This document shows, one piece after another, positions 160 through 16,211 of a stretch of 64,000 nucleotides of DNA. Source of the DNA: a bacterium (GTDB lineage Bacteria > Patescibacteriota > UBA1384 > CAILIB01 > JAUSJZ01); contig JAUSJZ010000010.1 in NCBI GenBank assembly GCA_030647115.1, positions 4,540 to 68,539 of the forward strand, written 5' to 3'. Below the pieces are notes generated by a model that made no database searches, had not been told where the DNA came from, and saw only the letters and a list, made by a program, of their open reading frames with translations. The first letter of the stretch is position 1. Each line of letters starts with the position of its first letter. The translations under genes and the position numbers were made by a program.

Positions 160-915
160 TCATTTGATATTGGGATTCTTTTTGACAATAAGACGTAACG
201 CTTTAGGGATGACACTGAACTCAATTGGAGTACGGGCAATAGTGGTACGGTCGATTATCAGATTAATTGGCTCGGGTGACGTTAGACGTAACGTGTCGGC
301 ACTAAATTCACTCACCGACAGTGGTAAATCATGATGTTTGAACCGCTGCCACCAGCCGCCGAAACCGGTCTTTTGTTGTAAGACCACCTCACAGCGCACT
401 ACTACCTGATGTTCGTTGTTGGCGGTGGTACGGGTGTTAATAGTAACGGTGGCCGGGGTCAGTTTAGCTTGATAATCGGCGGTTATGACGGTAATTTCGC
501 CGCGACCGCTGACATCGAGTATGGCCTTGGTTAAGAATAAATTGCTGTTGTTGATGTGACCCAACGGGGCGTGCTGCCAACGGCGTTGGCGCAGAGCCAC
601 AATTGCCTCTTCCCAATTGCTGACCCCTATTTTTTCTAATAAGGCCAGGTGTTCACCCAGAGGGATGATGCCGAGTACCATATCAAACCGCAGTAGCCGG
701 GCCGCTACTTTGTTAACCAATTTGGGGTCGCCGACCGCCACCACCGTCTGGTAACCTTTCTGATGGGCATCTGATAGACAGTATTCGATGCTTTTAGTCG
801 GGTTCAAATGAATAATTTCACCAGCAATACCTTGGCTTACTACAGCATCTTCAATCTGTTTTGCTGTTTCAGCCAACCGCCTATTGGTGGGTTGGTCGAA
901 GATAAAATAGTACAC
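160..915 (-). CDS. DAGK_cat-family lipid kinase-like protein (YegS/BmrU-like) with degenerate GGDGT motif
   Basis: 251 aa. It has the GIIPLG segment typical of the diacylglycerol-kinase catalytic fold, but the canonical GGDGT is replaced by VGDPKL. It is co-oriented 15 bp downstream of the bactofilin gene, suggesting an operon. Confidence 0.5.
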   Translation of the reverse strand: MYYFIFDQPTNRRLAETAKQIEDAVVSQGIAGEIIHLNPTKSIEYCLSDAHQKGYQTVVAVGDPKLVNKVAARLLRFDMVLGIIPLGEHLALLEKIGVSNWEEAIVALRQRRWQHAPLGHINNSNLFLTKAILDVSGRGEITVITADYQAKLTPATVTINTRTTANNEHQVVVRCEVVLQQKTGFGGWWQRFKHHDLPLSVSEFSADTLRLTSPEPINLIIDRTTIARTPIEFSVIPKALRLIVKKNPNIK

Positions 916-930
916 GCCCTAAAAGAGAAA

Positions 931-1485
931 TTACTCTTCTAGTTCTAGTTTGGGCTTGGGTTTTTTGATGGGTTCTTCGGGCTCTGTCTCATCTTCAGTA
1001 TCGTCTTCAGTATCGTCTTTAACTTTGGGTTCGTCTTCAGCCTCGGGTTCGTCTTCATCTTCACCTTCAACCTCGGTTTCGCCTTCATCTTCGTCGGTAC
1101 TACCGATACTAGATTTTAGGGAAGAGAGCCTGTCTTCAGCTATAATCGGTGGTTTAATATCAACCATCGCCGATGAGCCGTTAAAAATGGCCCCCGGTTG
1201 AACGTGCAGGGTTTTGACCTTGACGTCACCGTCTACTCGACTCTCCGGTAGCATCTCGAGGGTATCGCTGGCTTCGATTGAGCCCTCAACCGCCCCGGCC
1301 ACCTGAACATTCTGGGCCTTAATTGGGCCAACGACCTTGGCATTTACCCCGACGACTACCGATTCATCAGAAATAACATCGCCCTTAACCGTACCGTTAA
1401 TCAAAATTGAACCACTATTTTTGATGCTGCCGGCTAGCTCAACATCTTCACCGACCATTGTGTCAAACTCTTGGGTGTTCTCCAT
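931..1485 (-). CDS. bactofilin-family cytoskeletal protein with polyacidic C-terminal tail
   Basis: 184 aa. A repeated G-x-V/I beta-helix pattern (INGTVKGDVISDESVVVGVNAKVVGPIKAQNVQVAGAVEGSIEA) is characteristic of the bactofilin domain. The C-terminal ~60 aa are D/E/T-rich low complexity encoded by short tandem DNA repeats (e.g. TCTTCAGTATCG x2 near 985-1010). Confidence 0.7.
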   Translation of the reverse strand: MENTQEFDTMVGEDVELAGSIKNSGSILINGTVKGDVISDESVVVGVNAKVVGPIKAQNVQVAGAVEGSIEASDTLEMLPESRVDGDVKVKTLHVQPGAIFNGSSAMVDIKPPIIAEDRLSSLKSSIGSTDEDEGETEVEGEDEDEPEAEDEPKVKDDTEDDTEDETEPEEPIKKPKPKLELEE

Positions 1486-1544
1486 TTGAGGCCCTTACTT
1501 GTCTTGTATAACTAGTGTAGCACACTATTATCAAGTCATAGTGC

Positions 1545-1573
1545 TTGCTAAAAATGAAAAACTATGATAAATT
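1545..1573 (+). promoter_or_regulatory. candidate sigma70-like promoter for uvrA (TTGCTA-N17-TGaTAAATT, extended -10)
   Basis: Hexamers sit with a 17-nt spacer and a TG extended -10 in the 118-bp divergent intergenic region, about 30 bp upstream of the uvrA ATG. This is a motif match only. Confidence 0.3.
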
Positions 1574-1602
1574 CGCTCTGATTTAGATTTAATTTTGAAC
1601 GA

Positions 1603-4452
1603 ATGCATGAATCGGTTATAACCGTTACCGGTGCCCGCGAACACAACCTCAAAAATATTGACATAATTATCCCCAAGGACAAGCTGGTAGTAATTACCGG
1701 TTTGAGTGGCTCGGGTAAATCTTCGCTAGCCTTTGATACTCTTTATGCCGAAGGCCAACGTCGCTATGTCGAGAGTCTATCGGCCTATGCCAGACAGTTT
1801 TTGGGTATCATGGAGAAACCCGATGTCGATCACATTGAAGGGTTATCGCCGGCGATCTCGATTGACCAGAAAAATAGCTCGCGTAACCCCCGTTCAACGG
1901 TAGGCACGGTCACTGAAATATACGATTACATGCGCCTTTTATGGGCTCGAGTGGGAGAAGTCTACTGTCCCAAGGGCCACGGCAAGGTTGAACAGCAATC
2001 AGCCAGCCAAATAGCCGATAAGATTATCAGCCTGGCCAAGGGTAAAGTGGCTCGTATAATGATTCAGGCACCCTTGGTGCGTGATCGTAAAGGGGAACAT
2101 CGTTTAGTAATTTCCGGTTTAATAAAGAAAGGTATTGCTCGGGTAGCGGTTGATGGCCAGGTGTTGGAGATTGAAGAGGCCGCCACCCTAGATCTAGACA
2201 AACAGAAGAAACACACCATCGCGGCGGTTATCGACCGCTTATTGGTTGATGGCACCGAAGGCGATAAAACCGATTTAAGTCAGGAAGAACGCATTCGAAT
2301 ACTCGATTCGGTCGAAAAAGCCCTGAAGATCTCGGACGGCTTAGTGGAGATAGTTGATACCGAGAAAGGGAAGTCGGAGTTGTTCAGTGAACACTTTGCC
2401 TGCAACAAGTGTGACTTTGCTCTGCCCGAATTGGAGCCGCGCGTCTTTTCATTTAACAGTCCCCACGGGGCCTGCCCGAAGTGTCAGGGTCTGGGTACTT
2501 TACAGCAGCTAGATGCCAAGCGCATTGTACCCAACGGCAAGCTGACTATCTCTGAAGGGGCTATTAGACCGTGGAGTCGTTCGACCAACAGTGAGACCTG
2601 GATGATGCGCATATTACAGGCGGTTGTCACTAAACACAATTTTGACCTTGATACGCCGTTCAATAAACTAAAAAAGAGACAACAAGACATTGTGCTCTAC
2701 GGCACCGCCGAAGAGCTATACAGTGTCAACGGTTACGAAACAATGTATGAGGGTGTCATACCAAATTTAGCGCGCCGCCATAAAGAGACCGACTCCGATT
2801 ACATTCGGACCGAGATTGAAAAATATATGATTAGCCAGATCTGCCCCGTCTGTTTGGGTGGTCGTCTCAAAGAAGAGATCAAGTCTATCAAAATTGGGGA
2901 TAAGTCAATTGTGGAAGCCAATGCGATGGATATCAACCTGGCCGAGACTTTCTATCTTAATCTACCCAAGAAGCTAAGTGAGATGCAGTTAACAATTGCT
3001 AATCAGGTGCTGAAAGAGATCTCGACGCGCATTAAGTTCTTAAAAAATGTTGGTTTGGATTATCTGACACTAGATCGCAGTGCGACCACTCTGGCCGGCG
3101 GCGAAGCGCAGCGAATTCGACTGGCGACTCAAATCGGTTCCGGTTTAACGGGGGTTCTTTATATTTTAGACGAGCCCTCAATTGGGCTCCACCAACGCGA
3201 TAACGACAAACTGCTCGAGACCTTAAAAGAACTGCGCGACCTGGGTAACTCGGTCATTGTAGTGGAGCACGACGAGGATACGATGCGAGCGGCCGACTAC
3301 TTAATTGATATTGGGCCTGGTGCCGGCAAGCACGGTGGTGAGGTGGTCGCTTTGGGTACGCCCGAAGAGGTGACCAAAGCCAAGGGGTTAACGGCCGAAT
3401 ATCTACGGGGTGATAAAAAGATCAAGGTGCCGACGGTGCGTCGCCAACCGACCAGACGCGAACTAACGGTGGTAAAGGCGAGCGCCAATAATCTGAAAGA
3501 TATTAACGTGACCATTCCGTTAGGTTTGTTCGTCTGTGTCACGGGTGTCTCTGGTTCGGGTAAATCCACCTTAGTCTACGACATTGTGGCTAAAACACTG
3601 GCCGGACACTATCACCGCGCCCGCACCATACCGGGCCAACACAAAGAGATTAAGGGTCTAGAACAACTTGATAAGGTTATTATTATTGATCAGTCACCCA
3701 TTGGGCGTACACCGCGCAGTAACCCCGCTACCTACACCGGTGTCTTTACCTACGTACGCGAGCTGTTTGCGGCGACCAAAGAGGCCAAATCACGCGGGTA
3801 CAGTTCGGGGCGCTTCTCCTTCAATGTTAAGGGAGGTCGTTGTGAAGCCTGTGCCGGTGACGGTGTCAAAAAAATTGAAATGAACTTCTTACCCGATATT
3901 TACGTCAAGTGTGAGGTCTGTAAGGGTAAACGCTATAACGAAGAGGCACTGCAGATTATGTACAAGGGCAAAACCACGGCCGAGGTCTTAGACATGACCA
4001 TTGATGAAGCACTGGAGTTCTTTCAGAACATCACGGCCATTAAACGCAAATTAAAGGTTCTGTCAGATGTCGGCTTGGGTTATATGCACCTGGGGCAGCC
4101 GGCGACGACACTGTCGGGTGGTGAGGCGCAGCGTATTAAACTGGCCAGTGAACTATCCCGTCGCAGCACCGGTCGAACCATCTATATTTTGGATGAACCG
4201 ACTACCGGTCTGCATTTCGATGACATCAACCGCCTGTTGCAGGTGCTACAGCGTCTGGTGAGCAAGGGCAACTCGGTCTTGGTGATTGAGCATAACATTG
4301 ACGTCATCAAGAGTGCCGACTGGATCATTGACCTCGGCCCCGAGGGTGGGGCGAAGGGTGGTTATGTCATTGTGGAGGGTTCGCCCGAGACGGCGGCGGC
4401 TCACGCCAAGAGCTATACCGGTCAGTATTTGAAAAGAGTACTATCGAAGTAG
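1603..4452 (+). CDS. uvrA: excinuclease ABC subunit A (UvrA)
   Basis: 949 aa. It has two ABC ATPase modules (Walker [15 protein letters not shown] and [10 protein letters not shown], signature LSGGEAQR x2) and zinc-finger Cys clusters (CNKCDF..CPKCQG; CEACAG..CEVCKG). The length is canonical for UvrA. Confidence 0.97.
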
Positions 4453-4479
4453 TATCGGTCGCCAAAAAGGAGGCGGAAC

Positions 4480-4734
4480 ATGGTTCTACGCGATGACCGA
4501 ACGGGGAATCCACTGGGGGTACTGGTCTGGGCCGAAATTACCTTCAGTGATCACAGTGGTCCCAAGGGTAAGCTGTACCAGGCCTCTTCTGAAGAAGTAG
4601 CTCGCAATTGGATTGAGGATATCTTCAGAATAGGCCCCTGTTTCTACGGTCTGAAGCCACTCGACTGGCAGTGTCTACCTGCCGATACGGAGTCGCACGT
4701 CATTGCCATCGTGTCAGTCCCGGTCACCCCTTGA
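4480..4734 (+). CDS. hypothetical small protein (84 aa)
   Basis: A strong Shine-Dalgarno (AAAGGAGG) lies 7-8 nt upstream of the ATG. It is followed by a hairpin and T-run at 4723-4753. No recognisable family. Confidence 0.4.
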   Translation: MVLRDDRTGNPLGVLVWAEITFSDHSGPKGKLYQASSEEVARNWIEDIFRIGPCFYGLKPLDWQCLPADTESHVIAIVSVPVTP

Positions 4735-4753
4735 CGGGGTGGCCTTTTCTGTT
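4723..4753 (+). terminator. putative intrinsic terminator (CACCCC-ttgac-GGGGTG + TTTTCTGTT)
   Basis: A 6-bp GC stem whose loop contains the stop codon of the 4480-4734 ORF, followed by a T-rich tract. It lies directly upstream of the RNase P RNA. Confidence 0.35.
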
Positions 4754-4774
4754 ACAATCACCCTGACCACTTTT

Positions 4775-5110
4775 GGTGACTGATTACGTGGCTGCGCAAG
4801 CAGAGGAAAGTCCGGGCTTCAGTGTCATCGTTGTTGCTAACGGCAACCCACCGCAAGGTGCGAGCTAGTGCCACAGAAACGATACCTCCGGCGAAGCTCC
4901 AGAACGAAAGTATCAGGAGCGGAGCCGGAAAGGGTGAAATAGTGCGGTAAGAGCGCACTGGTTTGCTAGGTGACTAGCGAATCGAGGTAAACCTAACGGG
5001 AAGCAAGGTGGGTTGGACTGTAGACACATCAAAAGGTTGACACACCGTGTCTGTAGAACCCACCGCTTAGATAGATCACGTAATAAACAAAACCCGGCTT
5101 ATCGGTCACC
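4775..5110 (+). ncRNA. rnpB: RNase P RNA, bacterial type A
   Basis: It contains the universal GAGGAAAGTCCGGGCT (P4 5' strand), AAGGGTGAAAtaGTGCGGTAAGAGCGCAC (P10-P12 region) and ACAAAACCCGGCTTATCGGTCACC (P4 3' strand plus P1 3' strand, pairing with GGTGACTGAT at 4775-4784). Length is about 335 nt. The antisense ORF 4758-4958 is spurious. Confidence 0.85.
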
Positions 5111-5134
5111 AGGGGTGGTTTTTTAGTTAAACTA

Positions 5135-6034
5135 TTAGAGCAATCCGCCAGTCATAATTCGGTATTCTCTCTTGGAGTCCCAAATACTGGTTAGTGCTTT
5201 GAAATTCTTATCTGGTTCCAGCATTAATGTCGCCAACTGATCAATCTCTTGTAGTACTTTTTCTTTCAGGTTAGTAAAGTTGCTATAGCTGACAATCTCT
5301 GGAACATGTAGGTAAATGATTTCGTTGTTCATCAAGCAGTGAAAGTCATAAAACAACTCCCAAGCAATCGCCATTAATCCCTCAAAACCACCGGCATTGT
5401 AGAAATGTTTTTCGTCAATCTTGCCCGCGCGCACTTGCAACCAAGCAGCGGCAGAAAAGTCGAAAGTACCTTGTGGCAAATCATAGAAGTTTAGTTTTGT
5501 GTAATTGTGTAGACTACCGTCGACATCAATTGTGACCCAGCGTGATTGCCCCTCATCCCAGTACTGATCTATCCAATGATCATCACTTTTTCCTACCGGA
5601 AGACCCTCCACCATAAAATACGGAGCAAAGCCAGACCTAACTCTGGTGGGGATGCCTTTTGATTTTAAAATTGCTGCCACTAAAAGAGAGTCATGCCGGC
5701 AAGTCACAACTAGTTTATCTTCCGGATTGCGATCGAGAGTAAGCCCCCTGGCATCCCTTCTGAAAAGCTCTGCCATCATTGCTGAAACGGTTGGAAAAAC
5801 ATCATCTTCTGGTTGTCTGTACCAAGGAACCCTGTTCATGTCACCGTATTTCAAATCAGAATTAGTACCCGTATTGCCGGCTTTAAGAGTCGTGCGGTGG
5901 ATGATCTGTTTTCGCACCAAAAGTCCAATTTCCTTAATGTCGTTTGGTAATTCTTCTCTAAGGTACTTTTCATACAAACCAGGATTGGTATAGAGGCTAA
6001 AACACTTATAGTGGTCTATGATTACCTGTTGCAT
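5135..6034 (-). CDS. transglutaminase-like cysteine-protease superfamily protein
   Basis: 299 aa. A Cys-His-Asp arrangement (VVTCRHDSLLVAAILKSKGIPTRVRSGF ... DDHWIDQYWDEG ... WVTIDVD) is typical of the bacterial transglutaminase-like core. Confidence 0.55.
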   Translation of the reverse strand: MQQVIIDHYKCFSLYTNPGLYEKYLREELPNDIKEIGLLVRKQIIHRTTLKAGNTGTNSDLKYGDMNRVPWYRQPEDDVFPTVSAMMAELFRRDARGLTLDRNPEDKLVVTCRHDSLLVAAILKSKGIPTRVRSGFAPYFMVEGLPVGKSDDHWIDQYWDEGQSRWVTIDVDGSLHNYTKLNFYDLPQGTFDFSAAAWLQVRAGKIDEKHFYNAGGFEGLMAIAWELFYDFHCLMNNEIIYLHVPEIVSYSNFTNLKEKVLQEIDQLATLMLEPDKNFKALTSIWDSKREYRIMTGGLL

Positions 6035-6103
6035 GATTGAAATTTATATTATTTTTAGTCAAACTAACTCTACTTCCACATCTACTTCTTGCTCTCAAAC
6101 TAT

Positions 6104-6119
6104 GGTCGGGGACCTGGAT
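6104..6119 (-). repeat. direct repeat R1: degenerate copy of tRNA-Gln 3' end (GGTCGGGGACCTGGAT on plus strand)
   Basis: Matches the last ~17 nt (T-stem 3' strand plus acceptor 3' strand) of the tRNA-Gln at 6465-6538, with 1-2 mismatches. No upstream tRNA body is present. Confidence 0.7.
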
Positions 6120-6299
6120 TGAGGTTGTCAAGTCAGTCCCTCGCACCTTTTAAGCTTAATACTCGGGACTGATTTTGACAATCCTCGGTTGAATGGTGCC
6201 GTTTCAAGCTAATCGTACCATTCAACACGAACCAGTGGTTCGAACCCTTATCACTAGGTCAAAAGAAAAAGGTCTACCAGAAGGTAAACCTTTTTCTTT
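6120..6299. other. modular hairpin cassette unit 1: long imperfect hairpin, perfect 10-bp hairpin, CGAACCAgTGGTTCG palindrome, perfect 12-bp A/T hairpin
   Basis: Inverted repeats at 6121-6140/6165-6186, 6188-6197/6217-6226 (GTTGAATGGT/ACCATTCAAC), 6228-6242 and 6262-6273/6288-6299 (AAAGAAAAAGGT/ACCTTTTTCTTT). Confidence 0.6.
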
Positions 6300-6316
6300 G
6301 GCTCGGGGACCTGGAT
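6300..6316 (-). repeat. direct repeat R2: exact copy of tRNA-Gln 3' end (GGCTCGGGGACCTGGAT)
   Basis: A 17/17 match to the 3'-terminal T-stem/acceptor segment of tRNA-Gln. It is followed (6317-6464) by a second cassette with the same hairpin architecture as unit 1 but different stem sequences. Confidence 0.75.
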
Positions 6317-6464
6317 GGTGACCGTCAAGACAACCGTCATTGACTGTCACAGCCACCGTGGTCGTTGACACTATACCACGGTGGCCCGAACCAGTGGTTC
6401 GAATCCTTTACCTCAAAACAATACGCCATAGCTTCAGAAAGAAATTATCTGAAGCGACGGCGTA
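6317..6464. other. modular hairpin cassette unit 2 (same architecture as unit 1)
   Basis: Hairpins at 6317-6350 (GTGAC..GTCAA/TTGAC..GTCAC), 6353-6362/6375-6384 (CCACCGTGGT/ACCACGGTGG, perfect 10 bp), palindrome CGAACCAgTGGTTCG at 6387-6401, and hairpin 6431-6438/6448-6455 (GCTTCAGA/TCTGAAGC). Confidence 0.6.
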
Positions 6465-6538
6465 TGGCTCGGGGACCTGGATTCGAACCAGGATTCACGG
6501 CTTCAAAGGCCGCTGTCCTACCATTAGACGATCTCCGA
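6465..6538 (-). tRNA. tRNA-Gln (anticodon UUG), CCA encoded
   Basis: Minus-strand cloverleaf: acceptor TCGGAGA/TCCCCGA (one A:C mismatch at pair 5:68); D arm GTCT/AGAC-like; anticodon stem GCGGC/GCCGT with loop CTTTGAA (U33, anticodon TTG, A37); T arm CCTGG-TTCGAAT-CCAGG; discriminator G; CCA. The 3' half closely resembles E. coli tRNA-Gln (GGTTCGAATCCAGG..CC.AGCCA), including the weak U1:A72 pair and G73. Confidence 0.85.
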
Positions 6539-6551
6539 ATACGGTTCAACT

Positions 6552-6944
6552 TTACTCGTTTGGCACGTATAAGTAAACCTGTCGCTCTCTGAACCCCAAC
6601 TTTTGGTAAAGCAGGTGCGCTTCGGGTGAACCGGGGTCGGCGTAGACGTAACAATCTGGATATTGTACCAAGACCATCTGCATCAAGGCCGAGGCGATGC
6701 CCTGGCGACGATAATTGGGGTCAACCAGCAAATCGGCGACTAGAGTAAAGCCCACTCCATCGCTAATGGCGCGCACAACCGCCACCACCTGATTATCAAT
6801 CGCGGCGTAAGCGGCAAAATTGCTTTTGGAGAAGGCGAAAATGACTCGCTCTTGGCGGGCAAGATCCCAATCGGGGTGGGCCAGGGTCAGTAAGGAGAGA
6901 TGTTGGTCGTGTTGGGGGGCGATGGGGTAGTAGGTAATCATCAT
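6552..6944 (-). CDS. GNAT-family N-acetyltransferase
   Basis: About 130 aa from the internal Met (MMITYYPIAPQ...). The acetyl-CoA-binding motif A is VDPNYRRQGIASALMQ. The listed ORF start at 7118 was trimmed because the N-terminal 58 aa overlap the divergent 7000 gene and lie outside the GNAT fold. Confidence 0.7.
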   Translation of the reverse strand: MMITYYPIAPQHDQHLSLLTLAHPDWDLARQERVIFAFSKSNFAAYAAIDNQVVAVVRAISDGVGFTLVADLLVDPNYRRQGIASALMQMVLVQYPDCYVYADPGSPEAHLLYQKLGFRERQVYLYVPNE

Positions 6945-6999
6945 TACTATTATACATTTGTCGAAATTACAGTACAATAATGGAAAATAGTAATTAGCT

Positions 7000-7713
7000 A
7001 TGCTTGCTATCATCTCGAACGCCCGACGTGGAGTACGCTGGTGGGTAAAGGTCTTATGGTCGTTACTGTTAATTGTGGTGGCTGTCTTGGTGGTAATGTC
7101 GATAGACCGACGTACCAAGCCGGTTAACTTAAATCAACCGGGCCAGACCGGGGGCACCGATTCCCAAAAATTAGAACCAACCGCTACTAATGAGACTGCG
7201 ATCGACACCCCGGTACCACCGGTTACCACTGAAGCTCCAAAAAAAGAAGAGACGCCGGTTACCGAAAACAAGCCGGCCGAGCCGGTCAATTATGATGGCA
7301 CCGACGTTCATCTAGGCCCCATTACGGTTAAAATACCGAAACAGTGGTACTTTACCTACTCGCAAGAGTCGGTCGGCCAACTGCTTAACTTCGGGACGCA
7401 GACTTTTGGCCCCGATAACCCTTATACAGCCGCTATGGCTGACGATGCTAGTGGTTACGTGGGCCCATACGAGAGCATCCCTTCCGAGGCAGTGGGGGCC
7501 TTAGTTGAAACCAATAATATCACACTAGCCAACGGCCAAACTATTGAGAAGAAAGTCTACCGCGGCAATACGGCTGACAATGTTGATCTAACCCAGGTGG
7601 TGGTGAAGCTGAAAGTGGCCGATAAAGAATATGGGGTGCTGTTTTATACCCAATCAAAAAACGACACCCAACTGAAACGACTGTCAGACATGTTGCAGAT
7701 TATGGCCTATTAG
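7000..7713 (+). CDS. hypothetical membrane-anchored protein (N-terminal TM, Thr/Pro-rich linker, globular C-domain)
   Basis: 237 aa. The hydrophobic segment VKVLWSLLLIVVAVLVVM follows basic residues. No family recognised. Confidence 0.5.
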   Translation: MLAIISNARRGVRWWVKVLWSLLLIVVAVLVVMSIDRRTKPVNLNQPGQTGGTDSQKLEPTATNETAIDTPVPPVTTEAPKKEETPVTENKPAEPVNYDGTDVHLGPITVKIPKQWYFTYSQESVGQLLNFGTQTFGPDNPYTAAMADDASGYVGPYESIPSEAVGALVETNNITLANGQTIEKKVYRGNTADNVDLTQVVVKLKVADKEYGVLFYTQSKNDTQLKRLSDMLQIMAY

Positions 7714-7749
7714 CTTGCTCGACAACCCATTATCTGATAAGGCTAAAGG

Positions 7750-9606
7750 GTGACAAACTACCAAGAGATACTACACAACAGCTCCGCTATCTTCATGCTG
7801 ATTAACAGAGCGGGTAGTGTGGTTTACGTTAATAAGGTTCTCTATTCTATCTCTACTAAAACCATAAAGGCCCGTGGTTTGGATGTGTTAGAGGGGCTAA
7901 TGAGTAAGGGTGATCGCCATCTCCTGGCCACCGAATTAGAATCGGTCTGGGCCGGTATGGGCAACGAACGTTTTTGGACGACTAACTTAAAGATACCCGA
8001 GCTAGGTTTAGTGACGGTGACCATGCGTTCCTGGCTGCTGTCACCCCAGTTGATTGTGCTAGAGCTAAACGATATCTCCGCCACCAGTGAGGCTTACCGC
8101 GAGATTGTCCAGTCGGAACGAGAGCTGGCCCTGACCAGCAAACTGGCCCAGTTAAGAACCAAGTATATCTCTGAAGACGCCTTTTATCACGCCATGCTGA
8201 AACTTATTAACCACGAGGTTAAGGCAGATGGGGCATTGCTTTACTTTAAAACCGACAATCGGCCGGGCCAGTTGGTGGCTGGGGTAAGTGAAGATGACCG
8301 AATATTTGATATTGATCTGACAAATCTAATTGCTGATCTGACGTCACACCGAGTGGAGCTTCAACGAAAACAGCTACTTCAGTGGCAGAGCAGGTTGAGC
8401 GTACCGCTACACAACCAAGATGGACCGGTGGGTTGGTTGATTTTGTTTTCGGAAGAGCCAACCAATTTTGACTGGGTCAGTATCAGGCTGATAACCAAGG
8501 TAGGCCATTTCTTGAATCACTTAGTTACCCTCGACATCATGCGCCGGCAACGGGAACACTCCCAAAATATATCGGCGACTATCTTTGCCAGCGTGCAAGA
8601 CGGTCTGATAGTGTTTGACGACAAAGGAGTAGTGATTGATATTAACCCGCCAGCGGCGGCCCAATTACAGCTTAGGCCTGGTAAAAAAAAGGTGCTACTG
8701 GAGAATCTGGTTATACCCGGCTATAAAGACGCCATCAATCGGTTTTGGCAGCGCTTGCAAACCAGCGGTAAGGCCAAATGTCGGGTTAAGCTGGGTGGCG
8801 ATAGTCAGCCAATATACGAACTAGAAGGGGTGCGCATCGCCACCGAACAACAGCTGGTCTACCTAGGCAATATTAAAGATGTCTCCCTGTGGGTCAATCG
8901 ACAAGAGCTACTACAGCAGAAGACCCGCCGGTTAGAGCAAATTGACCGGTTGAAAGATCAATTTATCTCCATGGTGTCGCATGAGCTGCGTTCCCCCCTG
9001 ACAGTCATCAAAGGGCATCTATCACTCTGGCAGAAGAACCGACAGTCAATCGATCAAGCATCAATTGAGGCGGTTACCCAGGGGGCCGAACGGCTCGACC
9101 GCTTCGTCGGAGATATCTTGTTAGCCGCCCAAATGGAGTATGGCGAATTACCACTTAGCTATTCCAAAATAGATTTACCGCACAATTTTACCAATTTGGT
9201 GAATCAGCTAAAACCGATGATTGAGGAGAAAGAGCTCAAACTAACCACCAAAATAGCACCGCTCAATATTGAGATCGATGCCGATAGATTTAACCAAGCC
9301 ATTGTCAACATCCTAATGAATGCTATCAAGTATTGTAACCAGGGTGACAGTATCACAATCAACCTCCGTCGTAACGAGCGGGGAATCACCATCACTATCG
9401 CCGACACGGGCCCGGGTATTGCCCAGAAACACTTAGCCCATATCTTTGACCGCTTTTTTAAGGGTAGTAGTAGCTCGGTCGGTGCGGGCTTGGGTCTGTT
9501 CATCACCCATCAGATAGTAAGCAGGATGGGTGGGCACATTAGTGTCACCACCAAATTAAACCAGGGTACAAAATTCACCGTAAGTTTGCCCGTCAGGGTA
9601 TACTGA
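7750..9606 (+). CDS. cytoplasmic sensor histidine kinase (GAF/PAS-type sensory region + HisKA + HATPase_c)
   Basis: 618 aa with a GTG start. The H-box is FISMVSHELRSPLTVIKGH. N, G1 and G2 boxes are NAIKYCNQGD, DTGPGI and GAGLGLFITHQIVSRMGG. There are no TM segments and no response regulator gene in the window. Confidence 0.85.
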   Translation: MTNYQEILHNSSAIFMLINRAGSVVYVNKVLYSISTKTIKARGLDVLEGLMSKGDRHLLATELESVWAGMGNERFWTTNLKIPELGLVTVTMRSWLLSPQLIVLELNDISATSEAYREIVQSERELALTSKLAQLRTKYISEDAFYHAMLKLINHEVKADGALLYFKTDNRPGQLVAGVSEDDRIFDIDLTNLIADLTSHRVELQRKQLLQWQSRLSVPLHNQDGPVGWLILFSEEPTNFDWVSIRLITKVGHFLNHLVTLDIMRRQREHSQNISATIFASVQDGLIVFDDKGVVIDINPPAAAQLQLRPGKKKVLLENLVIPGYKDAINRFWQRLQTSGKAKCRVKLGGDSQPIYELEGVRIATEQQLVYLGNIKDVSLWVNRQELLQQKTRRLEQIDRLKDQFISMVSHELRSPLTVIKGHLSLWQKNRQSIDQASIEAVTQGAERLDRFVGDILLAAQMEYGELPLSYSKIDLPHNFTNLVNQLKPMIEEKELKLTTKIAPLNIEIDADRFNQAIVNILMNAIKYCNQGDSITINLRRNERGITITIADTGPGIAQKHLAHIFDRFFKGSSSSVGAGLGLFITHQIVSRMGGHISVTTKLNQGTKFTVSLPVRVY

Positions 9607-9610
9607 AAAC

Positions 9611-10243
9611 ATGTTCAACCAGCGATTATTACCGGCCATTTTAGAGCAGAGTGCCCTGTCGGTTAAACGCAAACTGGAACAGTTGGCAGCGTTATCTGAC
9701 TCAGTCCAACTAGATTTTATGGATGGCACTCTGACCGACAGTAAGACGCTTGATCTGGATGAACTACTGCGGCTGGCTACCAACTTCAAAATTGAGGTTC
9801 ACCTCATGGTTGCTAAACCAAGCCAGTATTTTCTAACCCTGGCGACGGGTAAGGTAAAAGCCTGCGTCATCCACCAAGAGAGCTATGACGACCAGTCTGA
9901 TCTAATCAAAGACTGTCAGGCACTGAAAGCCCTGGGTATTAGTCCTAGTATCTCTTGTTGGCCAGACGCGGAACCTGAAACTGTAGCTGAAGCCAAATCT
10001 TATCAAATTATGGGAGTGGTTCCCGGTCAGGTGGGCCAAACTATTATCGGTAATACGCGAACGCGAGCACTTAACCTCAAGCAACGGGTGCGGCGTGGTG
10101 TTATGATATCACTAGACGGGGGAGTTACGTCTGCTGTTGTCAGTGACCTGGCAGATGTAGTCGACCGTTTTATTGTGAACAGCTGGCTCTATTTAAAAGA
10201 GCCGGAGATACAGTGGCGTCTGTTAGAGCAGGCGCTAAAATAA
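9611..10243 (+). CDS. rpe: ribulose-phosphate 3-epimerase-like TIM-barrel protein (divergent)
   Basis: 210 aa. Divergent matches to RPE hallmarks: LPAIL..DFMDG (substrate/metal site), HLMV, MGVVPGQVGQ (GFGGQ-like) and SLDGG. It directly precedes gap/tkt/fba. Confidence 0.55.
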   Translation: MFNQRLLPAILEQSALSVKRKLEQLAALSDSVQLDFMDGTLTDSKTLDLDELLRLATNFKIEVHLMVAKPSQYFLTLATGKVKACVIHQESYDDQSDLIKDCQALKALGISPSISCWPDAEPETVAEAKSYQIMGVVPGQVGQTIIGNTRTRALNLKQRVRRGVMISLDGGVTSAVVSDLADVVDRFIVNSWLYLKEPEIQWRLLEQALK

Positions 10244-10260
10244 CAAAGAAAAGGAGGGCA

Positions 10261-11271
10261 ATGGCATATGCAGTTGCGATTAACGGTTTTGGCCGCATTG
10301 GTCGAACTGCTTTTAAGATTGCCTTAACTAGGCCGGAGATTGAAATAGTCGCTATTAACGACCTGGCTGCAGCCGAATCACTAGCTTATCTACTGCGTTA
10401 TGACACCGCCTATGGCAAATACAGTGAAGAGGTAGCCGTTGACCAAAACTCCTTAGTTGTCGGAGGCCAGTCCATTCCACTTTTTGCCGAACCAGACCCT
10501 ACCAAACTACCCTGGCGTGATTTAAACGTTGACGTGGTAGTCGAGTCTACCGGTGCCTTTACCAAAAGAGAGCAGGCCGAGCAGCACCTAACAGCCGGTG
10601 CCAAGGCGGTTGTCGTCTCCGCTCCCGGAAAAGGTGATAATCCAATTACTATCGGGGTCTTGGGGGCGAATGAATTAAATGCTACCACCGAAAAACTATT
10701 CTCGAACGCCTCTTGCACGACTAATTGCATCTCACCTATCATGGCCATTTTAGACGCCGAGCTGGGGGTTGCTAAAGCGATGATGACGACAATTCACGCC
10801 TATACTGCTTCTCAAAATATTCAAGACGGACCGAACAAAGATTTTCGTCGGGGGCGCGCCGGAGCCGCCAATATCATACCGACGACCACCGGAGCAGCCA
10901 CAGCCACGACGGCCGTTTTGCCAAATCTCAAAGACAAATTTAACGGGTTTGCGCTACGGGTACCGCTTATTACCGGCTCAATTAGTGATATTACGGCGGT
11001 TGTCAAGCGCCAGACTACCGTGGCCGAGCTCAATCAAATATTCACCGACAAGGCCGATAAGGGTTTACTAAAAGGTATACTACAGGTCACTACCGAGCCC
11101 ATCGTCTCGAGTGATGTCATTGGTTCATCGTATTCAGCCATCGTTGATCTCTCCTTTACCCAGGTTGTGGGTGGTGACCTGGTTAAAATTGTAGCCTGGT
11201 ATGACAACGAGTACGGCTACTCCTGTCGTTTAATTGACCAGGTAATCGCGATTGCTAAACAAGTGGCATGA
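10261..11271 (+). CDS. gap: glyceraldehyde-3-phosphate dehydrogenase
   Basis: The N-terminal NAD-binding motif is MAYAVAINGFGRIGR and the catalytic motif is SCTTNC. The start was set at ATG 10261 inside the longer listed ORF (10213). Confidence 0.95.
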   Translation: MAYAVAINGFGRIGRTAFKIALTRPEIEIVAINDLAAAESLAYLLRYDTAYGKYSEEVAVDQNSLVVGGQSIPLFAEPDPTKLPWRDLNVDVVVESTGAFTKREQAEQHLTAGAKAVVVSAPGKGDNPITIGVLGANELNATTEKLFSNASCTTNCISPIMAILDAELGVAKAMMTTIHAYTASQNIQDGPNKDFRRGRAGAANIIPTTTGAATATTAVLPNLKDKFNGFALRVPLITGSISDITAVVKRQTTVAELNQIFTDKADKGLLKGILQVTTEPIVSSDVIGSSYSAIVDLSFTQVVGGDLVKIVAWYDNEYGYSCRLIDQVIAIAKQVA

Positions 11272-12104
11272 CCATTTATACGCTCGAAAAAAAGGCCTAT
11301 CACATTAGAGAGCAGGTAATTAAAATGCTGCTGGCCGCTAAATCGGGTCACGCGGCCGGTTCGTTAGGAGTGGCCGATATTATGACGGCTCTTTATTTTC
11401 GCTATCTCAATCATCAACCTAAAAAACCCGACTGGGAGGGTCGAGACCGGTTTATTTTGTCTTGTGGTCACCTGGTACCGGTCTGGTATGCCACCCTAGC
11501 CGAGGCCGGCTATTTCGATCAGGCCCAACTGACCGGTCTACGGCAATTTGGCAGTAAACTGCAGGGTCACCCTAAAAGGGGTCTGCTACCTGGGGTGGAG
11601 AATACCGGGGGGCCCTTGGGCCAAGGGGTTTCACAGGCTGTCGGACGAGCGCTGGCCGCGCGTTTGCTGAAGGCTAAATACCGAATTGTCTGCCTGATGA
11701 GTGACGGTGAACAGCAGGAGGGCCAGGTCTGGGAAGCTCTAATGACGGCCAGCAAATATAAATTATCTAACCTAACTTTTATAGTTGATCGCAATAATAT
11801 TCAGATAGACGGTCATACCGAAGATATCATGCCCCTTGAACCACTGCGGGCCAAATACGAGGCCTTTGGTCTAGAAGTGCTCGAAGTTGACGGGCATAAC
11901 ATTAAGGCAATTTTGGACTGTTTGAGTCAGGCCGAAGCGACCTATGAGAAACCGACGATTATTATGGCTCATACTATTGCCGGCAAAGGAGTCAGTTTTA
12001 TGGAGCAAGAACCGAATTGGCACGGTCGGGCACCCAATAAAGAAGAGGCGCTACGAGCGCTGCAACAACTACGAACACTAGAAGGAAGAATCGAACATGA
12101 TTAA
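11268..12104 (+). CDS. transketolase, N-terminal (TPP-binding) subunit
   Basis: 278 aa with GHAAGSLGVADIMTALYF and TPP-binding segments. The gene is split: it overlaps the next ORF by 8 nt. Confidence 0.9.
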   Translation: MTIYTLEKKAYHIREQVIKMLLAAKSGHAAGSLGVADIMTALYFRYLNHQPKKPDWEGRDRFILSCGHLVPVWYATLAEAGYFDQAQLTGLRQFGSKLQGHPKRGLLPGVENTGGPLGQGVSQAVGRALAARLLKAKYRIVCLMSDGEQQEGQVWEALMTASKYKLSNLTFIVDRNNIQIDGHTEDIMPLEPLRAKYEAFGLEVLEVDGHNIKAILDCLSQAEATYEKPTIIMAHTIAGKGVSFMEQEPNWHGRAPNKEEALRALQQLRTLEGRIEHD

Positions 12105-13053
12105 GGAACTAGCTACTGCCAACGGCTCATTACGCAACGGGTTTGGAGACGCGCTGGTAGAACTGGGTAATTTAAATTCTAAGGTGGTGGTGATCACCGC
12201 TGACCTAAAAGAGAGTACGCGGGCCACTACCTTTGCCGAGCGCTTTCCCGAACGCTTCTTCGACGTGGGCGTTGCGGAACAGAATATGATGGGGGTAGCG
12301 GCCGGTTTGGCACAAGAGGGCTTTATTCCCTTCTGTACCAGCTTCGCGGTTTTTAATCCGGGTCGTAATTGGGACCAGTTGAGAGTTAGTGTCTGTTATG
12401 ACAACGCCAACGTGAAGATTATTGGCGCCCATGCGGGTCTGACTGCCGGAGGCGATGGGGCGACTCACCTCGGTCTCGAAGATCTGGCAATCACCCGAGT
12501 CTTACCAAACCTGGTGGTGTTGGCACCGGCCGATATTCACGAGACCAGAATGGCCACCCTAGCGGCTGCTGCCTACGCCGGGCCAGTTTATATCAGGTTT
12601 GGGCGCAGTGATGAGCCAATTATCTTCAAACCGGGTGAACAATTTAGCATCGGTAAGGCCAAAGTTATGCGCGAGGGTCGCGACATTGCCCTTTATACTA
12701 CCGGCAGCATGTTAGCCCCGACCCTGGCGGCCGCCGCTTATTTGGATAGTAATAAGGTGAAGGCGGCCGTGATTCATTTCCCCACCGTAAAACCGTTAGA
12801 TAAGACGACTGCTATTGAATACGCCCGACAGACCAAGGCGGTGGTAACGGTCGAGGAACATCAAGTCGATGGCGGTTTCGGCAGTGCTATTAGCGAAGTA
12901 CTCTCTGAAAATTGGCCGGTACCCCTAAAGAGAATGGGGGTGAACAATACCTTTGGGGAGACGGGCTCACCCGTTGAATTGCGGCGAAAACACAAATTGC
13001 AGAGTAGCGATATCGCCGCTGCGGCCGTGAAACTGTTACTCAAACATCGATGA
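12097..13053 (+). CDS. transketolase, C-terminal (pyrimidine-binding + C-domain) subunit
   Basis: 318 aa. It matches the central/C-terminal half of transketolase (FPERFFDVGVAEQNMMGVAAGLA...) and is adjacent to the N-half. Confidence 0.9.
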   Translation: MIKELATANGSLRNGFGDALVELGNLNSKVVVITADLKESTRATTFAERFPERFFDVGVAEQNMMGVAAGLAQEGFIPFCTSFAVFNPGRNWDQLRVSVCYDNANVKIIGAHAGLTAGGDGATHLGLEDLAITRVLPNLVVLAPADIHETRMATLAAAAYAGPVYIRFGRSDEPIIFKPGEQFSIGKAKVMREGRDIALYTTGSMLAPTLAAAAYLDSNKVKAAVIHFPTVKPLDKTTAIEYARQTKAVVTVEEHQVDGGFGSAISEVLSENWPVPLKRMGVNNTFGETGSPVELRRKHKLQSSDIAAAAVKLLLKHR

Positions 13054-13916
13054 TCACCACTTTGGTACCGGTCTTGCACCAGGCCCAGCTCAACCGTTAC
13101 GCCGTCGGCGCCTTCAACACCAATAACCTGGAGTTCAGCCAGGCCATCATTGAGGCAGCCCACGAAGAGCAGGCACCGGTTATTATCCAACTCTCACCTA
13201 AAGCCATGGTTTACGGTGGTAAGGCCCTTTTTTGTCTGACACAAGAGTTGGCTGCCAACACCGACGTACCGGTAGTCATCCACCTCGATCACGGTAGGAA
13301 ATTGAGTGATCTCAAACTGGGGCTCGAATGGCAGATGAGCTCGGTCATGATGGATGCCTCCGCGTTGAGTTTTAAACGCAATGTCGACGCTACCAAAGAA
13401 GCGGTCCGATTGGCACACCGTCATCGTGCCAGCGTCGAGGGTGAGTTGGGTACGATTGGAGGTCAAGAGGACTATGTTACTGGTGATGATCAGAATTCCT
13501 ACAGCTTAGACCAGATCAAAATATTTGCTAAGGAGACCCGAGTCGATGCGTTAGCCCTTGGTTTGGGGACCAGCCACGGTTTGCCCGTTAAGAACGAACA
13601 CGTCGATCAAAATATCTTAAAACAGGCCCGGGCCGCTGTCACCACACCCCTAGTTTTACACGGTGCCTCAAATATTGCTCCACTGGTAATTCGTAAGGCA
13701 ATTTTAAACGGCATCACTAAAATCAATATTGATACCGAGTTACGGCAACCATTTACCGGTGCAGTCCGCCATGCGCTGGCGACTGACCACCGACTCTTTG
13801 ACCCCCGGGAATACCTGGGAGTGGCCCGGGCAGCCGTCAAGGAGAGAGTGAAGCAAAAGATTAGATTATTTGGTTCAGCCAATAAAGCCAACTATGGATA
13901 TCCACGTTTTAGGTGA
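13050..13916 (+). CDS. fba: class II fructose-bisphosphate aldolase family protein
   Basis: 288 aa with AVGAFNTNNLEF, VIIQLS, VVIHLDHG and LHGASNI motifs of class II FBP/tagatose-bisphosphate aldolases. Confidence 0.88.
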   Translation: MITTLVPVLHQAQLNRYAVGAFNTNNLEFSQAIIEAAHEEQAPVIIQLSPKAMVYGGKALFCLTQELAANTDVPVVIHLDHGRKLSDLKLGLEWQMSSVMMDASALSFKRNVDATKEAVRLAHRHRASVEGELGTIGGQEDYVTGDDQNSYSLDQIKIFAKETRVDALALGLGTSHGLPVKNEHVDQNILKQARAAVTTPLVLHGASNIAPLVIRKAILNGITKINIDTELRQPFTGAVRHALATDHRLFDPREYLGVARAAVKERVKQKIRLFGSANKANYGYPRFR

Positions 13917-14856
13917 TGTAACAATCGACAACTTCATCTTTATTGATCATAATGATGCGGTTTTAAATTGTCGGCTCAATACCGACAACTGCACCTTGAG
14001 TGTGAAATACGGCGAGAAAACGCCGGTCAAGGAACTGTACCATTCAATTGGCGGCAACGCGGCTAACGTAGCGGTTGGTTTAACTCGCTGTGGTCTATCA
14101 AATAAACTGTATACCGAAGTCGGTGCTGATGTTGCTGGCCAACAATTAATAGATACCTTAAAAAAAGAGGGCGTTAACGTCAGCCAGGTCGAGGTTGTCT
14201 CTAAGAGGGCAACCAACCAATCGTATATCATTTTGTACTTAGGCGAACGAACTATCTTCTCTTATCATGAACCCGATCAAAAACTTGCTATCAATATTAA
14301 AGATAGTGATACGGTCTATCTTACCTCACTCGGAAAAGGGTGGCAGGAAGTGTATGAGAGTGTCTTAAATAGTAAGCTGTTAATTTACCAACCGGGGACC
14401 ATTCAGATAAGAGCTGGTTGGCGACAATCTAAAGCGATATTAGCTAAATCGGGTATTCTGATTCTCAATTACACCGAAGCAGAGAGTCTGCTTGGCAAAA
14501 CCTATTCGAACGGTAAAGATCTGTTAAACGCCCTGCTAAATACGGGTGCCAAAGAGGTGGTTGTAACCAAAGGCAAGGCCGGTTCACTAGCCGCTAACCA
14601 GTACGAGTTTTATGAAGCGGGAGTTTGGCATGAGGCTATTAAAAAAGAATCAACCGGCTCTGGTGATGCCTACACCAGTGCCTATGTCGCTAGTCGGCTA
14701 AAAGGTCTGGGTATCGATGTAGCAATGCAGGCCGGCACGTTGAACGCCGGTTACGTGATGCAGGAGATTGGCGCTCAAGCAGGCTTGCAACGATGGGATG
14801 AGCTGATGAAAGCCGTTAAATCGAGTAAGATAACGGTTAAAAATATAAATGATTAG
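13894..14856 (+). CDS. PfkB-family carbohydrate kinase (ribokinase-like)
   Basis: GGNAANVAVGL (motif 1) and GSGDAYTSAYVA (C-terminal anion-hole motif). The start was chosen at MDIHVLG to limit overlap with fba. Substrate unknown. Confidence 0.75.
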   Translation: MDIHVLGDVTIDNFIFIDHNDAVLNCRLNTDNCTLSVKYGEKTPVKELYHSIGGNAANVAVGLTRCGLSNKLYTEVGADVAGQQLIDTLKKEGVNVSQVEVVSKRATNQSYIILYLGERTIFSYHEPDQKLAINIKDSDTVYLTSLGKGWQEVYESVLNSKLLIYQPGTIQIRAGWRQSKAILAKSGILILNYTEAESLLGKTYSNGKDLLNALLNTGAKEVVVTKGKAGSLAANQYEFYEAGVWHEAIKKESTGSGDAYTSAYVASRLKGLGIDVAMQAGTLNAGYVMQEIGAQAGLQRWDELMKAVKSSKITVKNIND

Positions 14857-15811
14857 CAAGAAAGTCGTTGTTTTGAGAGAGATACCGGCCGTGGCAATTG
14901 AATTGCTGGCTAAGAAATATCAGGTTGATGTCAATCAGTCGGGTCGGGTTCTGACCCGAGAGCAGTTGTATCATCGAGTGAAAGGGGCTAGCGCCATCAT
15001 CTCACTGCTGACCGATCGCATAGATGGGGCGGTGGTCAAGGCCGCTGGGCCACATCTGGCAATTGTCGCCAACTACGCGGTGGGGTTCGATAACGTAGAA
15101 CTGAAGGCCTTACGTGAGAAAAACATTGTGGTAACTAATACGCCGGGCGGAGTAACCGAAGCGGTCGCGGAACATACATTAGCCTTAACTCTGGCAGTGG
15201 CGCGTCGGGTGGTAGAAGCGGACAAATATGTCAGAAGCGGTCGCTATAAGCAGTGGGAACCATTACTCTTTTTAGGGCAATCACTAGTCGGCAAGACGGT
15301 GGGTATAATAGGGGCCGGTCGTATTGGTTCGGCCTTTGGTCGCATGATGCATCGAGCCCTCAAGGCAAAGCTACTCTACTTTGATACTCAACGTAACGCT
15401 GAATTAGAGCGGTCAATCGGAGCTACCAAGGTCTCTCTCAACGCCATTATGGAGCGCAGTGATATTATCTCTATTCACGTCTGTCTAACACCGCAGACCA
15501 AACACCTGATTGGTAGGGCCCAGTTAGCAGCCATGAAACCGACGGCTATTTTAGTAAATACCGCCCGGGGCCCGGTTATAGATGAAAGCTGTTTAATAGA
15601 TTGTCTCAAAAATAAAAGTATCTTCGGAACCGCCCTAGATGTTTATGAAAATGAACCCCACTTAATACCGGGCACTCGAGCACTCAACAATATAGTCCTG
15701 ACGCCTCATATTGGTTCAGCTACCGATGATGCCCGAATAGAGATGGCCGTCACGGCGGCCCGTAATGTTATCGCTGTACTATCTGGTCACGTCCCGCTCA
15801 ACCCCGTTTAA
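14849..15811 (+). CDS. D-isomer-specific 2-hydroxyacid dehydrogenase (glycerate/hydroxypyruvate/lactate DH family)
   Basis: 320 aa. The NAD-binding motif is GIIGAGRIGSAFG, with catalytic Arg/Glu/His placement typical of the family. Confidence 0.8.
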   Translation: MISKKVVVLREIPAVAIELLAKKYQVDVNQSGRVLTREQLYHRVKGASAIISLLTDRIDGAVVKAAGPHLAIVANYAVGFDNVELKALREKNIVVTNTPGGVTEAVAEHTLALTLAVARRVVEADKYVRSGRYKQWEPLLFLGQSLVGKTVGIIGAGRIGSAFGRMMHRALKAKLLYFDTQRNAELERSIGATKVSLNAIMERSDIISIHVCLTPQTKHLIGRAQLAAMKPTAILVNTARGPVIDESCLIDCLKNKSIFGTALDVYENEPHLIPGTRALNNIVLTPHIGSATDDARIEMAVTAARNVIAVLSGHVPLNPV

Positions 15812-15881
15812 AAACGATATCCTCTTGACAAGCTATACCAACCTGCCAGAATAAGGACAGATTAGAAGTTAACATGCGTAT

Positions 15882-16124
15882 ATGGCTTACGAGTATACCA
15901 ACTCAAAAGGACAGCTCTACCACCTCCACTCGAAGGAGGTAACCTTGAAGGGTAACCTTCAGATGAAGATCTTCTACTTTAAGAAGGAGGTCGACGAAGA
16001 GTTCGCGATTGATGAACTACCGGCCGACCGAGAGGTCGTCGAGAATGAGCGCACCGGTTTACCGCTCGTGCGACGTAAGCGAACCGAAGAAGAGGCTAAG
16101 GAAGAGGCTAAAGAAAAAGGCTAG
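15882..16124 (+). CDS. hypothetical small protein with highly charged C-terminus
   Basis: 80 aa with no clear SD. It is followed 25 nt later by a very strong intrinsic terminator, which supports a transcribed unit ending here. Confidence 0.35.
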   Translation: MAYEYTNSKGQLYHLHSKEVTLKGNLQMKIFYFKKEVDEEFAIDELPADREVVENERTGLPLVRRKRTEEEAKEEAKEKG

Positions 16125-16149
16125 GCAAGACTAGCTCTTAAGTAGGAAA

Positions 16150-16180: not shown

Positions 16181-16211
16181 ATTGGGTCTTACTTGCTACA
16201 TTCTCTTGTAG

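Follow-up and report, generated by a model that had tools for sequence, protein, structure and literature searches.

What are the two short, hairpin-rich segments that follow the tRNA-Gln gene in contig JAUSJZ010000010.1 of a patescibacterial metagenome-assembled genome (MAG; GCA_030647115.1), each of which ends in a copy of the 3' end of that tRNA? The window, by which is meant the whole stretch of 64,000 nucleotides analysed (positions 4,540 to 68,539 of the contig; coordinates below are those of the window), had been described in an earlier note made from the sequence alone, which offered as explanations the scars of integrative elements, miniature inverted-repeat transposable elements (MITEs) that had captured the tRNA 3' end, or tRNA-linked small RNAs or processing modules. 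The last of these options matches a class that has already been described, the tRNA-linked repeats (TLRs) of Escherichia coli (PMC8144298), and the interpretation favored here, with moderate confidence, is that positions 6102-6464 are two TLR units on tRNA-Gln, the read-through product of which would be trimmed by tRNA 3' maturation enzymes.

The tRNA-Gln(UUG) gene lies on the minus strand at 6465-6538 (ARAGORN; Rfam RF00005, 60.8 bits; cloverleaf drawing), has a genome-encoded CCA, and is the sole tRNA called in the window by ARAGORN and by Rfam. Its last 18 nt, from the T-loop to the CCA (TGGCTCGGGGACCTGGAT on the plus strand), recur as direct repeats on the minus strand. Copy R0 (6465-6482) is the tRNA's own 3' end, R1 (6299-6316) is an exact 18-nt copy (AUCCAGGUCCCCGAGCCA on the sense strand) that forms the 3' end of unit 2, and R2 (6102-6119) is a degenerate copy (AAUCCAGGUCCCCGA-CCA) that has lost the discriminator G and shows either 3 differences from the tRNA 3' end (15/18 identical) or one deleted base. 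These three matches compare with 0.10 expected by chance in the window. The start-to-start spacings are 166 and 197 bp, and the segment that begins at the base after the CCA of tRNA-Gln accordingly divides into two tandem units of 166 and 197 nt on the minus strand. The combined ARAGORN, Rfam and repeat searches thus confirmed the earlier report of a minus-strand tRNA-Gln whose 3' end recurs once exactly and once in degenerate form; the copies are real, but the repeat measures 18 nt with the A of the CCA, rather than 17, and its coordinates shift by 1-2 nt, and successive repeat copies start 166 and 197 bp apart rather than 167 and 195 bp. A Logan contig (SRR13727527), which is an independent assembly, is identical over 2135-6521, and the locus is therefore not an artefact of the MAG assembly.

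Both units have the same order of elements on the sense strand, consisting of a hairpin immediately after the CCA (hpT), a spacer of 15-16 nt, a palindrome, a perfect hairpin (hpB), a long imperfect hairpin (hpC) and the repeat, all on the minus strand. In unit 2, hpT2 (6421-6464; inverted repeat and fold) has a 16-18-bp stem and a 9-nt loop, and UAUUGUUUUG comes after it on the sense strand. It thus resembles a weak terminator, and a simple terminator scan did not call it, the loop being longer than 8 nt. The spacer (6407-6420; 15 nt on the sense strand, UUGUUUUGAGGUAAA) is succeeded by the palindrome (6387-6406; GGAUUCGAACCA-C-UGGUUCG on the sense strand, from inverted repeats and folding), the 11-bp perfect hairpin hpB2 (6352-6385; inverted repeat) and the long imperfect hairpin hpC2 (6318-6350; folds). 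In unit 1, hpT1 (6262-6298; inverted repeat) resembles a bidirectional intrinsic terminator, AAGAAAAAG-stem-CUUUUUCUUUUG, and gives a partial match to the Rfam ctRNA terminator; it is followed by the spacer (6248-6261; 16 nt on the sense strand), the palindrome (6228-6247; GGGUUCGAACCACUGGUUCG on the sense strand, inverted repeat), the 10-bp perfect hairpin hpB1 (6188-6226; inverted repeat) and the long imperfect hairpin hpC1 (6121-6186; inverted repeat and fold). All the hairpins listed in the earlier note exist (terminal, 6262-6299 and 6421-6465; perfect, 6188-6226 and 6352-6385; long, ~6121-6186 and 6318-6350), and its description of a common architecture with different stems was accurate, since outside the repeat and the palindrome the two units have no clear similarity (z = 1.2 for the 5' part and z = 2.7 for the middle, the latter from an off-register alignment). 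The fold of each unit is far better than those of shuffled sequences on both strands (z = −6.9 to −7.7), the sense-strand folds being slightly more stable than those of the opposite strand, and hpT1 and hpT2 each hold one G.U pair on the sense strand. In hpB, the 4 apical pairs are identical between the units and 6 pairs are changed on both sides, which makes structural conservation with compensatory change, as had been suggested, plausible, but a comparison of two units cannot tell this from unrelated hairpins.

The palindrome, CGAACCAGTGGTTCGAAYCC, is found at 6228-6247 and 6387-6406 and nowhere else in the 64 kb, with 0 occurrences expected. Its origin had been missed: the first 12 nt of the sense strand are the exact reverse complement of the T-arm of tRNA-Gln itself (UGGUUCGAAUCC), and the last 8 nt are a copy of the 5' strand of the T-stem plus UUCG. 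The palindrome is an antisense copy of the T-arm fused to the sense 5' half of the T-arm. The sense half (..CUGGUUCG) and the repeat ((A)AUCCAGG..CCA) together correspond to the 3' part of the tRNA, split in the T-loop by hpB and hpC, and in the fold the GGAU of the palindrome pairs with the AUCC of the next repeat to close a four-way junction. Because the palindrome is made of T-arm copies and the repeat is the tRNA 3' end, both of the conserved anchors in each unit are tRNA-derived.

A cloverleaf-like four-way junction that carries T-arm and acceptor 3' sequences might be taken to indicate that the units are unusual or degenerate tRNA genes that are misfolded by the tools, or ordinary tRNAs that the earlier note had failed to fold. 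However, ARAGORN (default and relaxed) and the Rfam tRNA model (at gathering and at E <= 10) find no tRNA in the units, relaxed ARAGORN giving only implausible intron-containing or permuted models, and the lengths of the arms and the loops are not tRNA-like, so that this explanation is scarcely credible. A hidden tmRNA was also considered and was rejected when ARAGORN and Rfam, with the same settings, found tRNA-Gln alone; the units belong to no Rfam family. The MITE explanation, in which small mobile elements captured the tRNA 3' end, is in keeping with the small size and hairpin-rich character of the units, but the ends of the units carry no terminal inverted repeats, there is no target-site duplication beyond the tRNA end, and the window has no other copies of the palindrome or the repeat. 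The 185,579 representative genomes contain no true copy of the palindrome, the 3 matches all being coincidences in coding sequence (e.g. a ...DSNHWFG... permease motif), and the JGI metagenomes contain one true match, discussed below. The MITE option is consequently very improbable.

The described class provides a closer parallel. TLRs were first reported by Egan and Landy in 1978 (as cited in PMC8144298), and E. coli K-12 has 22 of them at ten loci, with 1-5 per locus (Stenum et al. 2021, PMC8144298), each of them closing at its 3' end with 18-19 bp that match exactly the 3' terminus of the tRNA or rRNA upstream of it (PMC8144298). For RtT and RrA/B/F, cotranscription with the upstream gene and processing into a discrete RNA have been shown, although a function is known solely for the three rrn-linked members, the claim for RtT in the stringent response having since been retracted (PMC8144298). 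When compared with this operational class (PMC8144298), the window units come immediately after a tRNA and share its strand, they end in the tRNA 3' end (18/18 including the CCA in unit 2; 15/18, or one deletion, in unit 1), and their number, two, is within the range of 1-5 units per locus; judged from sequence, they appear to have every feature of the class that was compared. Transcription with the tRNA and trimming to a discrete RNA are predicted for the window units, with indirect support from the terminator-like hairpins and the sense-strand G.U pairs.

The similarity is most extensive with RtT (rttR, RF00391), the RNA that the E. coli tyrT operon yields from its 178-bp repeats, four units of which score 133-137 bits. 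Each of these units ends in AAUCCUUCCCCCACCACCA, the 3' end of tRNA-Tyr, and is composed, in this order, of T-arm sequence in antisense (GGGGAAGGAUGAGAAGCUUCG), half a T-arm in sense (AAGGUUCGA), a hairpin insert and AAUCC..CCA. The tyrT/tyrV units and those in the window are alike in following a tRNA immediately on its own strand, in being arranged in tandem (178 nt versus 166 and 197 nt), in ending in 18-19 nt of the tRNA 3' end that start in the T-loop, in being matched in each case to the T-stem of their own tRNA, and in their sequence of antisense T-arm, sense 5' half of the T-arm, hairpin insert and repeat. They differ in the host tRNA (Tyr in E. coli, Gln in the window) and in the organisms (Proteobacteria versus the candidate phyla radiation, CPR), in the length of the closing helix (10 bp in E. 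coli, 4-5 bp in the window), and in the terminator-like first hairpins, which are present in the window units but not in RtT. The repeat boundary seen in the window (AAUCC...CCA, starting in the T-loop) is found both at tyrT/tyrV and at argV-Q, where the unit sizes are similar, at 178 and 133-135 nt, respectively; the T-loop position at which the repeat begins does not vary among them. The three TLRs of the argV-argY-argZ-argQ operon (E. coli K-12 2817784-2818645; 133-135 nt) resemble the window units in ending in the 3' end of their tRNA (AAUCCUCCCGGAUGCACCA, from tRNA-Arg) and in folding into a four-way junction that is closed where the repeat pairs with a segment upstream of it; in contrast to the window units, they have no T-arm palindrome, contain the core hairpins of RtT and alternate with tRNA genes that are duplicated. 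The tRNA-Arg-linked repeats have CGUUGC-loop-GCAACG and CCCGAAGGG hairpins in common with the tyrT RtT units, despite the different tRNA, and since these core hairpins occur on both tRNA-Arg and tRNA-Tyr repeats, the insert is a shared module with flanks matched to each tRNA.

A similar layout was encountered in metagenomic contigs of gammaproteobacterial origin. The one true match to the palindrome in the JGI metagenomes (L011), assigned to the Gammaproteobacteria from a paralogue of elongation factor G (EF-G), has the unit architecture downstream of a tRNA-Tyr gene. After the CCA comes a hairpin of 36 nt, then a spacer of 16 nt whose sequence is imperfectly antisense to the 3' strand of the tRNA acceptor; the 20-mer follows in identical form, and after it one perfect and one complex hairpin and AAUCCACC. 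Horizontal transfer was considered as a source of the 20/20 identity of the palindromes and was set aside as unnecessary, UGGUUCGAAUCC being common to both tRNAs and a local rebuilding being possible. In a relative of this locus (L013), tRNA-Tyr is followed by a 173-nt unit that ends in the full 19-nt tRNA-Tyr 3' end and then by the start of a second unit. The palindrome has diverged in L013 (GGAUUAGAAUCA[..]UGGUUUG), with G.U pairing that is kept only on the tRNA-sense strand; G.U pairs in hpT1, hpT2 and this palindrome, together with the better sense-strand energies, weakly favor a putative RNA on the strand of the tRNA. With the Rfam RtT model, the L013 unit gives a full-length alignment that, at 27.3 bits (E = 0.05), stays under the gathering score. 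The second unit of L013 (6465-6724) has an apparent insertion of ~140 nt within the perfect hairpin, followed by the conserved GCCCGAAGGGCG motif, and is cut off by the end of the contig. Upstream of the tRNA-Tyr locus, the EF-G paralogue is called as two adjacent or overlapping open reading frames (ORFs) (465-2443 in L012, 3995-6082 in L013), one for the GTPase and domain II (384-416 aa) and one for domains III-V (275-276 aa), many database homologues being likewise of 200-340 aa; this could represent a split gene, a frameshift or recoding. A further relative, L014, which is without tRNA-Tyr, has ~4 tandem copies of a repeat of ~30 nt (..GGGATCTCCAAACGCTGCTAACTGCCT..) at 815-1000, downstream of the EF-G paralogue.

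Several observations weigh against the identification of the window units as TLRs with an RNA product. The RtT model (RF00391; gathering score 45 bits) has no match in 5900-6700 even at E <= 10, and the conserved core, CGUUGC..GCAACG-CCCGAAGGGCG and CCCGAAGGG, which is present in the E. coli Tyr and Arg units and in L013, is absent by inspection from both window units. The acceptor-like helix formed between spacer and repeat reaches significance in the E. coli units (p = 0.003), and those of the window fall short of it (p ~0.3); in unit 2 the complementarity is weak and requires G.U pairs, with a duplex energy no better than those of shuffled sequences (p ~0.3). A full minihelix in the window units was dropped from consideration, the spacer-repeat helix being no better than shuffles; the closing stem amounts to only 4-5 bp. 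Because the model gives no match at E <= 10, the core is absent and the closing helix is not significant, the window units are not members of Rfam RtT, and because the RtT core, the match to the model and the long closing helix are all absent here, common descent with the E. coli TLRs is unproven. Their link with TLRs rests on architecture and on tRNA-derived sequence, for which a convergent origin could also account. It should also be recognized that the identity of the L011 palindrome is not independent evidence, the palindrome having been the bait in the search, that the locus has only two units, too few for a test of covariation, and that we infer transcription and processing of the units. 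The functional structured RNA proposed in the earlier note is accordingly not demonstrated by two units for which no close homologues were found.

Comparison with related genomes bears on how the units arose. Protein homologues place the window in the CPR (Patescibacteria), the closest named group by UvrA being Berkelbacteria, at 68% identity. The gene order uvrA, RNase P RNA, a variable segment, tRNA-Gln(−), GNAT(−), histidine kinase, rpe, gap and tkt is kept in L006 and L008, two distant relatives with UvrA identities to the window of 79% and 77%, respectively, whereas the farther UvrA relatives L020-L024 are without the GNAT/tRNA-Gln synteny. No additional copies of the tRNA-Gln 3' end were found in L006 or L008, and both are without units; the 3' side of tRNA-Gln is occupied at once by a terminator in L006 and by the next gene in L008. 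The A and T tracts of the L006 terminator (AAGAAAAAG ... CUUUUUCUUUUG) are identical to those of hpT1, the hairpin after R1. This match implies that the ancestral 3' flank is joined to R1 and that unit 2 lies between the tRNA body and this flank.

Such a position is where an insertion would be placed, and the units might therefore be remnants of integrative elements, or miniature elements without an integrase, that were inserted serially in the T-loop of tRNA-Gln, each duplicating the segment from the T-loop to the CCA, as in attachment (att) site scars or cis-mobilizable elements (CIMEs). The segment from T-loop to CCA is the identity block expected for a tyrosine integrase with a T-loop crossover, and it is this boundary that the repeats have. 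The ancestral-type 3' flank on R1 and not R0, the "empty" tRNA-Gln 3' ends of the syntenic (if distant) L006 and L008, in place of which the window has an insert bounded by direct tRNA 3' repeats, the differing gene content between rnpB and tRNA-Gln in all three genomes, and the greatest decay in the distal copy, R2, also agree with this explanation. As at tRNA genes that serve integrases or CIMEs as att sites, the tRNA is intact, its 3' part is repeated directly farther downstream, and the gene content alongside is variable. However, no integrase, excisionase or transposase was found in 1-17.7 kb, where Pfam scans of ORFs in 160-17675 gave housekeeping families only, and the variable genes lie outside the repeats, with no further repeat copy beside them. 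The segments are tiny (166-197 bp) and non-coding, include their own inverted copy of the T-arm and keep a conserved order of hairpins, and E. coli and L013 have a like architecture in chromosomal tandem arrays that contain no genes of mobile elements.

Viral contigs provide a further contrast. Neither the palindrome nor the repeat junction has a match among them (0 in each case), and a relaxed scan for the palindrome gave 8 matches (phage tRNA arrays, tRNA fragments beside integrase-like ORFs, and unrelated sequences), none with the unit architecture. In L026, L028 and L030, antisense tRNA 3' fragments (TGGTGCGGGAGGGATTCGAACCCTC...) lie directly upstream of ORFs that start MASLYKR..SPYWW and look integrase-like from their N-terminal sequence alone. 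These contigs resemble classical attP or prophage-end configurations and differ from the TLR layout in having a single antisense fragment of the tRNA 3' end, by an integrase-like ORF, and no hairpin cassette. The att remnants suggested in the earlier note thus retain the direct repeats and the empty sites in relatives, but the hypothesis is weakened by the lack of a recombinase in 1-17.7 kb, and we consider it unlikely.

The units could alternatively be neutral debris, left by the decay of a duplication or fold-back rearrangement that took place locally, and long ago, in the 3' region of the tRNA, with no RNA product that matters. Palindromic DNA and terminators are common in such a location and would explain the hairpins, the relatives do without units, the repeat of unit 1 is damaged, and the units are without clear similarity outside their tRNA-derived parts; the E. 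coli TLRs themselves went without a demonstrated function for decades (PMC8144298). Uniform decay is nevertheless difficult to reconcile with the perfect conservation of R1 and of the 20-nt palindromes where all else differs, with four hairpin positions that are kept in both units and have extreme folding z-scores, or with the recurrence of the ordered layout in a different phylum. This explanation is therefore rather improbable.

If the two segments are TLR units, as favored here, their expression may be modeled on that of the rrn-linked TLRs. RrA, RrB and RrF each lie between two terminators, and their expression is by read-through; they carry GGA motifs and bind CsrA as well as Hfq, and 18 bp copied from the 3' end of the gene upstream, just before the second terminator, have been proposed to direct 3' processing (PMC8144298). 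The order tRNA, hpT2, unit 2, R1, hpT1 in the window parallels the order 5S, T1, TLR, T2 in E. coli (as in rrnB T1-RrB-T2), with the copy of the 3' end placed before the second terminator in both; the E. coli RNAs differ in being linked to 5S rRNA and in their GGA motifs and CsrA/Hfq binding, and they have no sequence in common with the window units. By analogy, RNA polymerase would read through the weak hpT2 and lengthen the tRNA-Gln transcript at its 3' end by unit 2, and hpT1, acting as a strong terminator, would end the read-through transcript. The terminal 18 nt, with their first bases paired to the upstream GGAU, would present a tRNA-like 3' end, so that tRNA 3'-end maturation enzymes could trim unit 2 to the CCA of R1, giving a discrete RNA of ~165 nt ending in ...GAGCCA that might persist as a compact, highly structured RNA with a four-way junction. 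Unit 1 is probably an older copy in decay, because it lies behind the terminator and its repeat is damaged. The repeats also supply matching sequence through which unequal recombination could occur at the 3' end of tRNA-Gln.

The locus extends a long-known class to the tRNA-Gln of an uncultured CPR bacterium and is not a new kind of system; its interest is modest, lying in the phylogenetic extension and in a handle on the origin of TLRs. The presence of a TLR-like array in a reduced CPR genome, together with the fold-back T-arm layout in uncultured Gammaproteobacteria, would suggest that the design is far more widespread than in the literature consulted. A broader and decidedly speculative proposal is that TLR-type modules represent a design distributed from CPR to Gammaproteobacteria that is rebuilt in each case from the T-arm and 3' end of the host tRNA, producing a fold-back mimic of a minihelix with hairpins at the T-loop. 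Were it correct, it would imply either a conserved generator that targets the T-loop, in the form of a very small integrative element that is not autonomous, or conservation of a role for mimics of the tRNA 3' end, e.g. as decoys for enzymes that bind 3' ends or as read-through reporters of tRNA operon transcription. A simple search rule, a non-tRNA copy of the last ~18 nt of a tRNA within ~400 nt downstream of it, could supply the units for covariation tests and for a decision between RNA function and a mobile element. There is also a practical consequence for annotation. The 12 ORFs of 27-78 aa that cover the tRNA and the hairpin units on both strands (6006-6654) are spurious calls where they appear in gene tracks, none being supported; the earlier note had counted three spurious ORFs over the region, and three or more such calls are flagged in the MAG.

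The remaining observations concern the surroundings of the locus. A bacterial class A RNase P RNA gene (4773-5116; 193.6 bits) lies ~1.3 kb from the tRNA-Gln/repeat locus, and its proximity is probably unrelated to the repeats, the linkage uvrA-rnpB-...-tRNA-Gln being kept in relatives without them. The space that separates rnpB from tRNA-Gln, on the 3' side of the latter, contains a transglutaminase-like gene in the window (5135-6034), msrB in L006 (5395-5754) and zip plus an unknown gene in L008 (11286-12918); it looks like a hot spot of gene turnover, and neither flanking repeats nor a recombinase were found in it. Homologues of the transglutaminase-like protein (60-69% identical) are scattered over CPR lineages in non-syntenic contexts, and this neighbor was dropped as an anchor for synteny, its homologues having unrelated surroundings. 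A cyanobacterial origin of the window, at first suggested by its GC content, was rejected, since HIP1 occurs only at the level expected by chance and the protein homologues point to the CPR. The acceptor stem of tRNA-Gln has an A5.C68 mismatch in place of the G5-C68 pair of both syntenic relatives, and its anticodon arm, T-stem and discriminator (G versus A) are markedly unlike theirs, whereas the 5' acceptor strand and the D-arm are nearly identical; this may reflect recombinational replacement of the 3' two-thirds of the gene or plain divergence.

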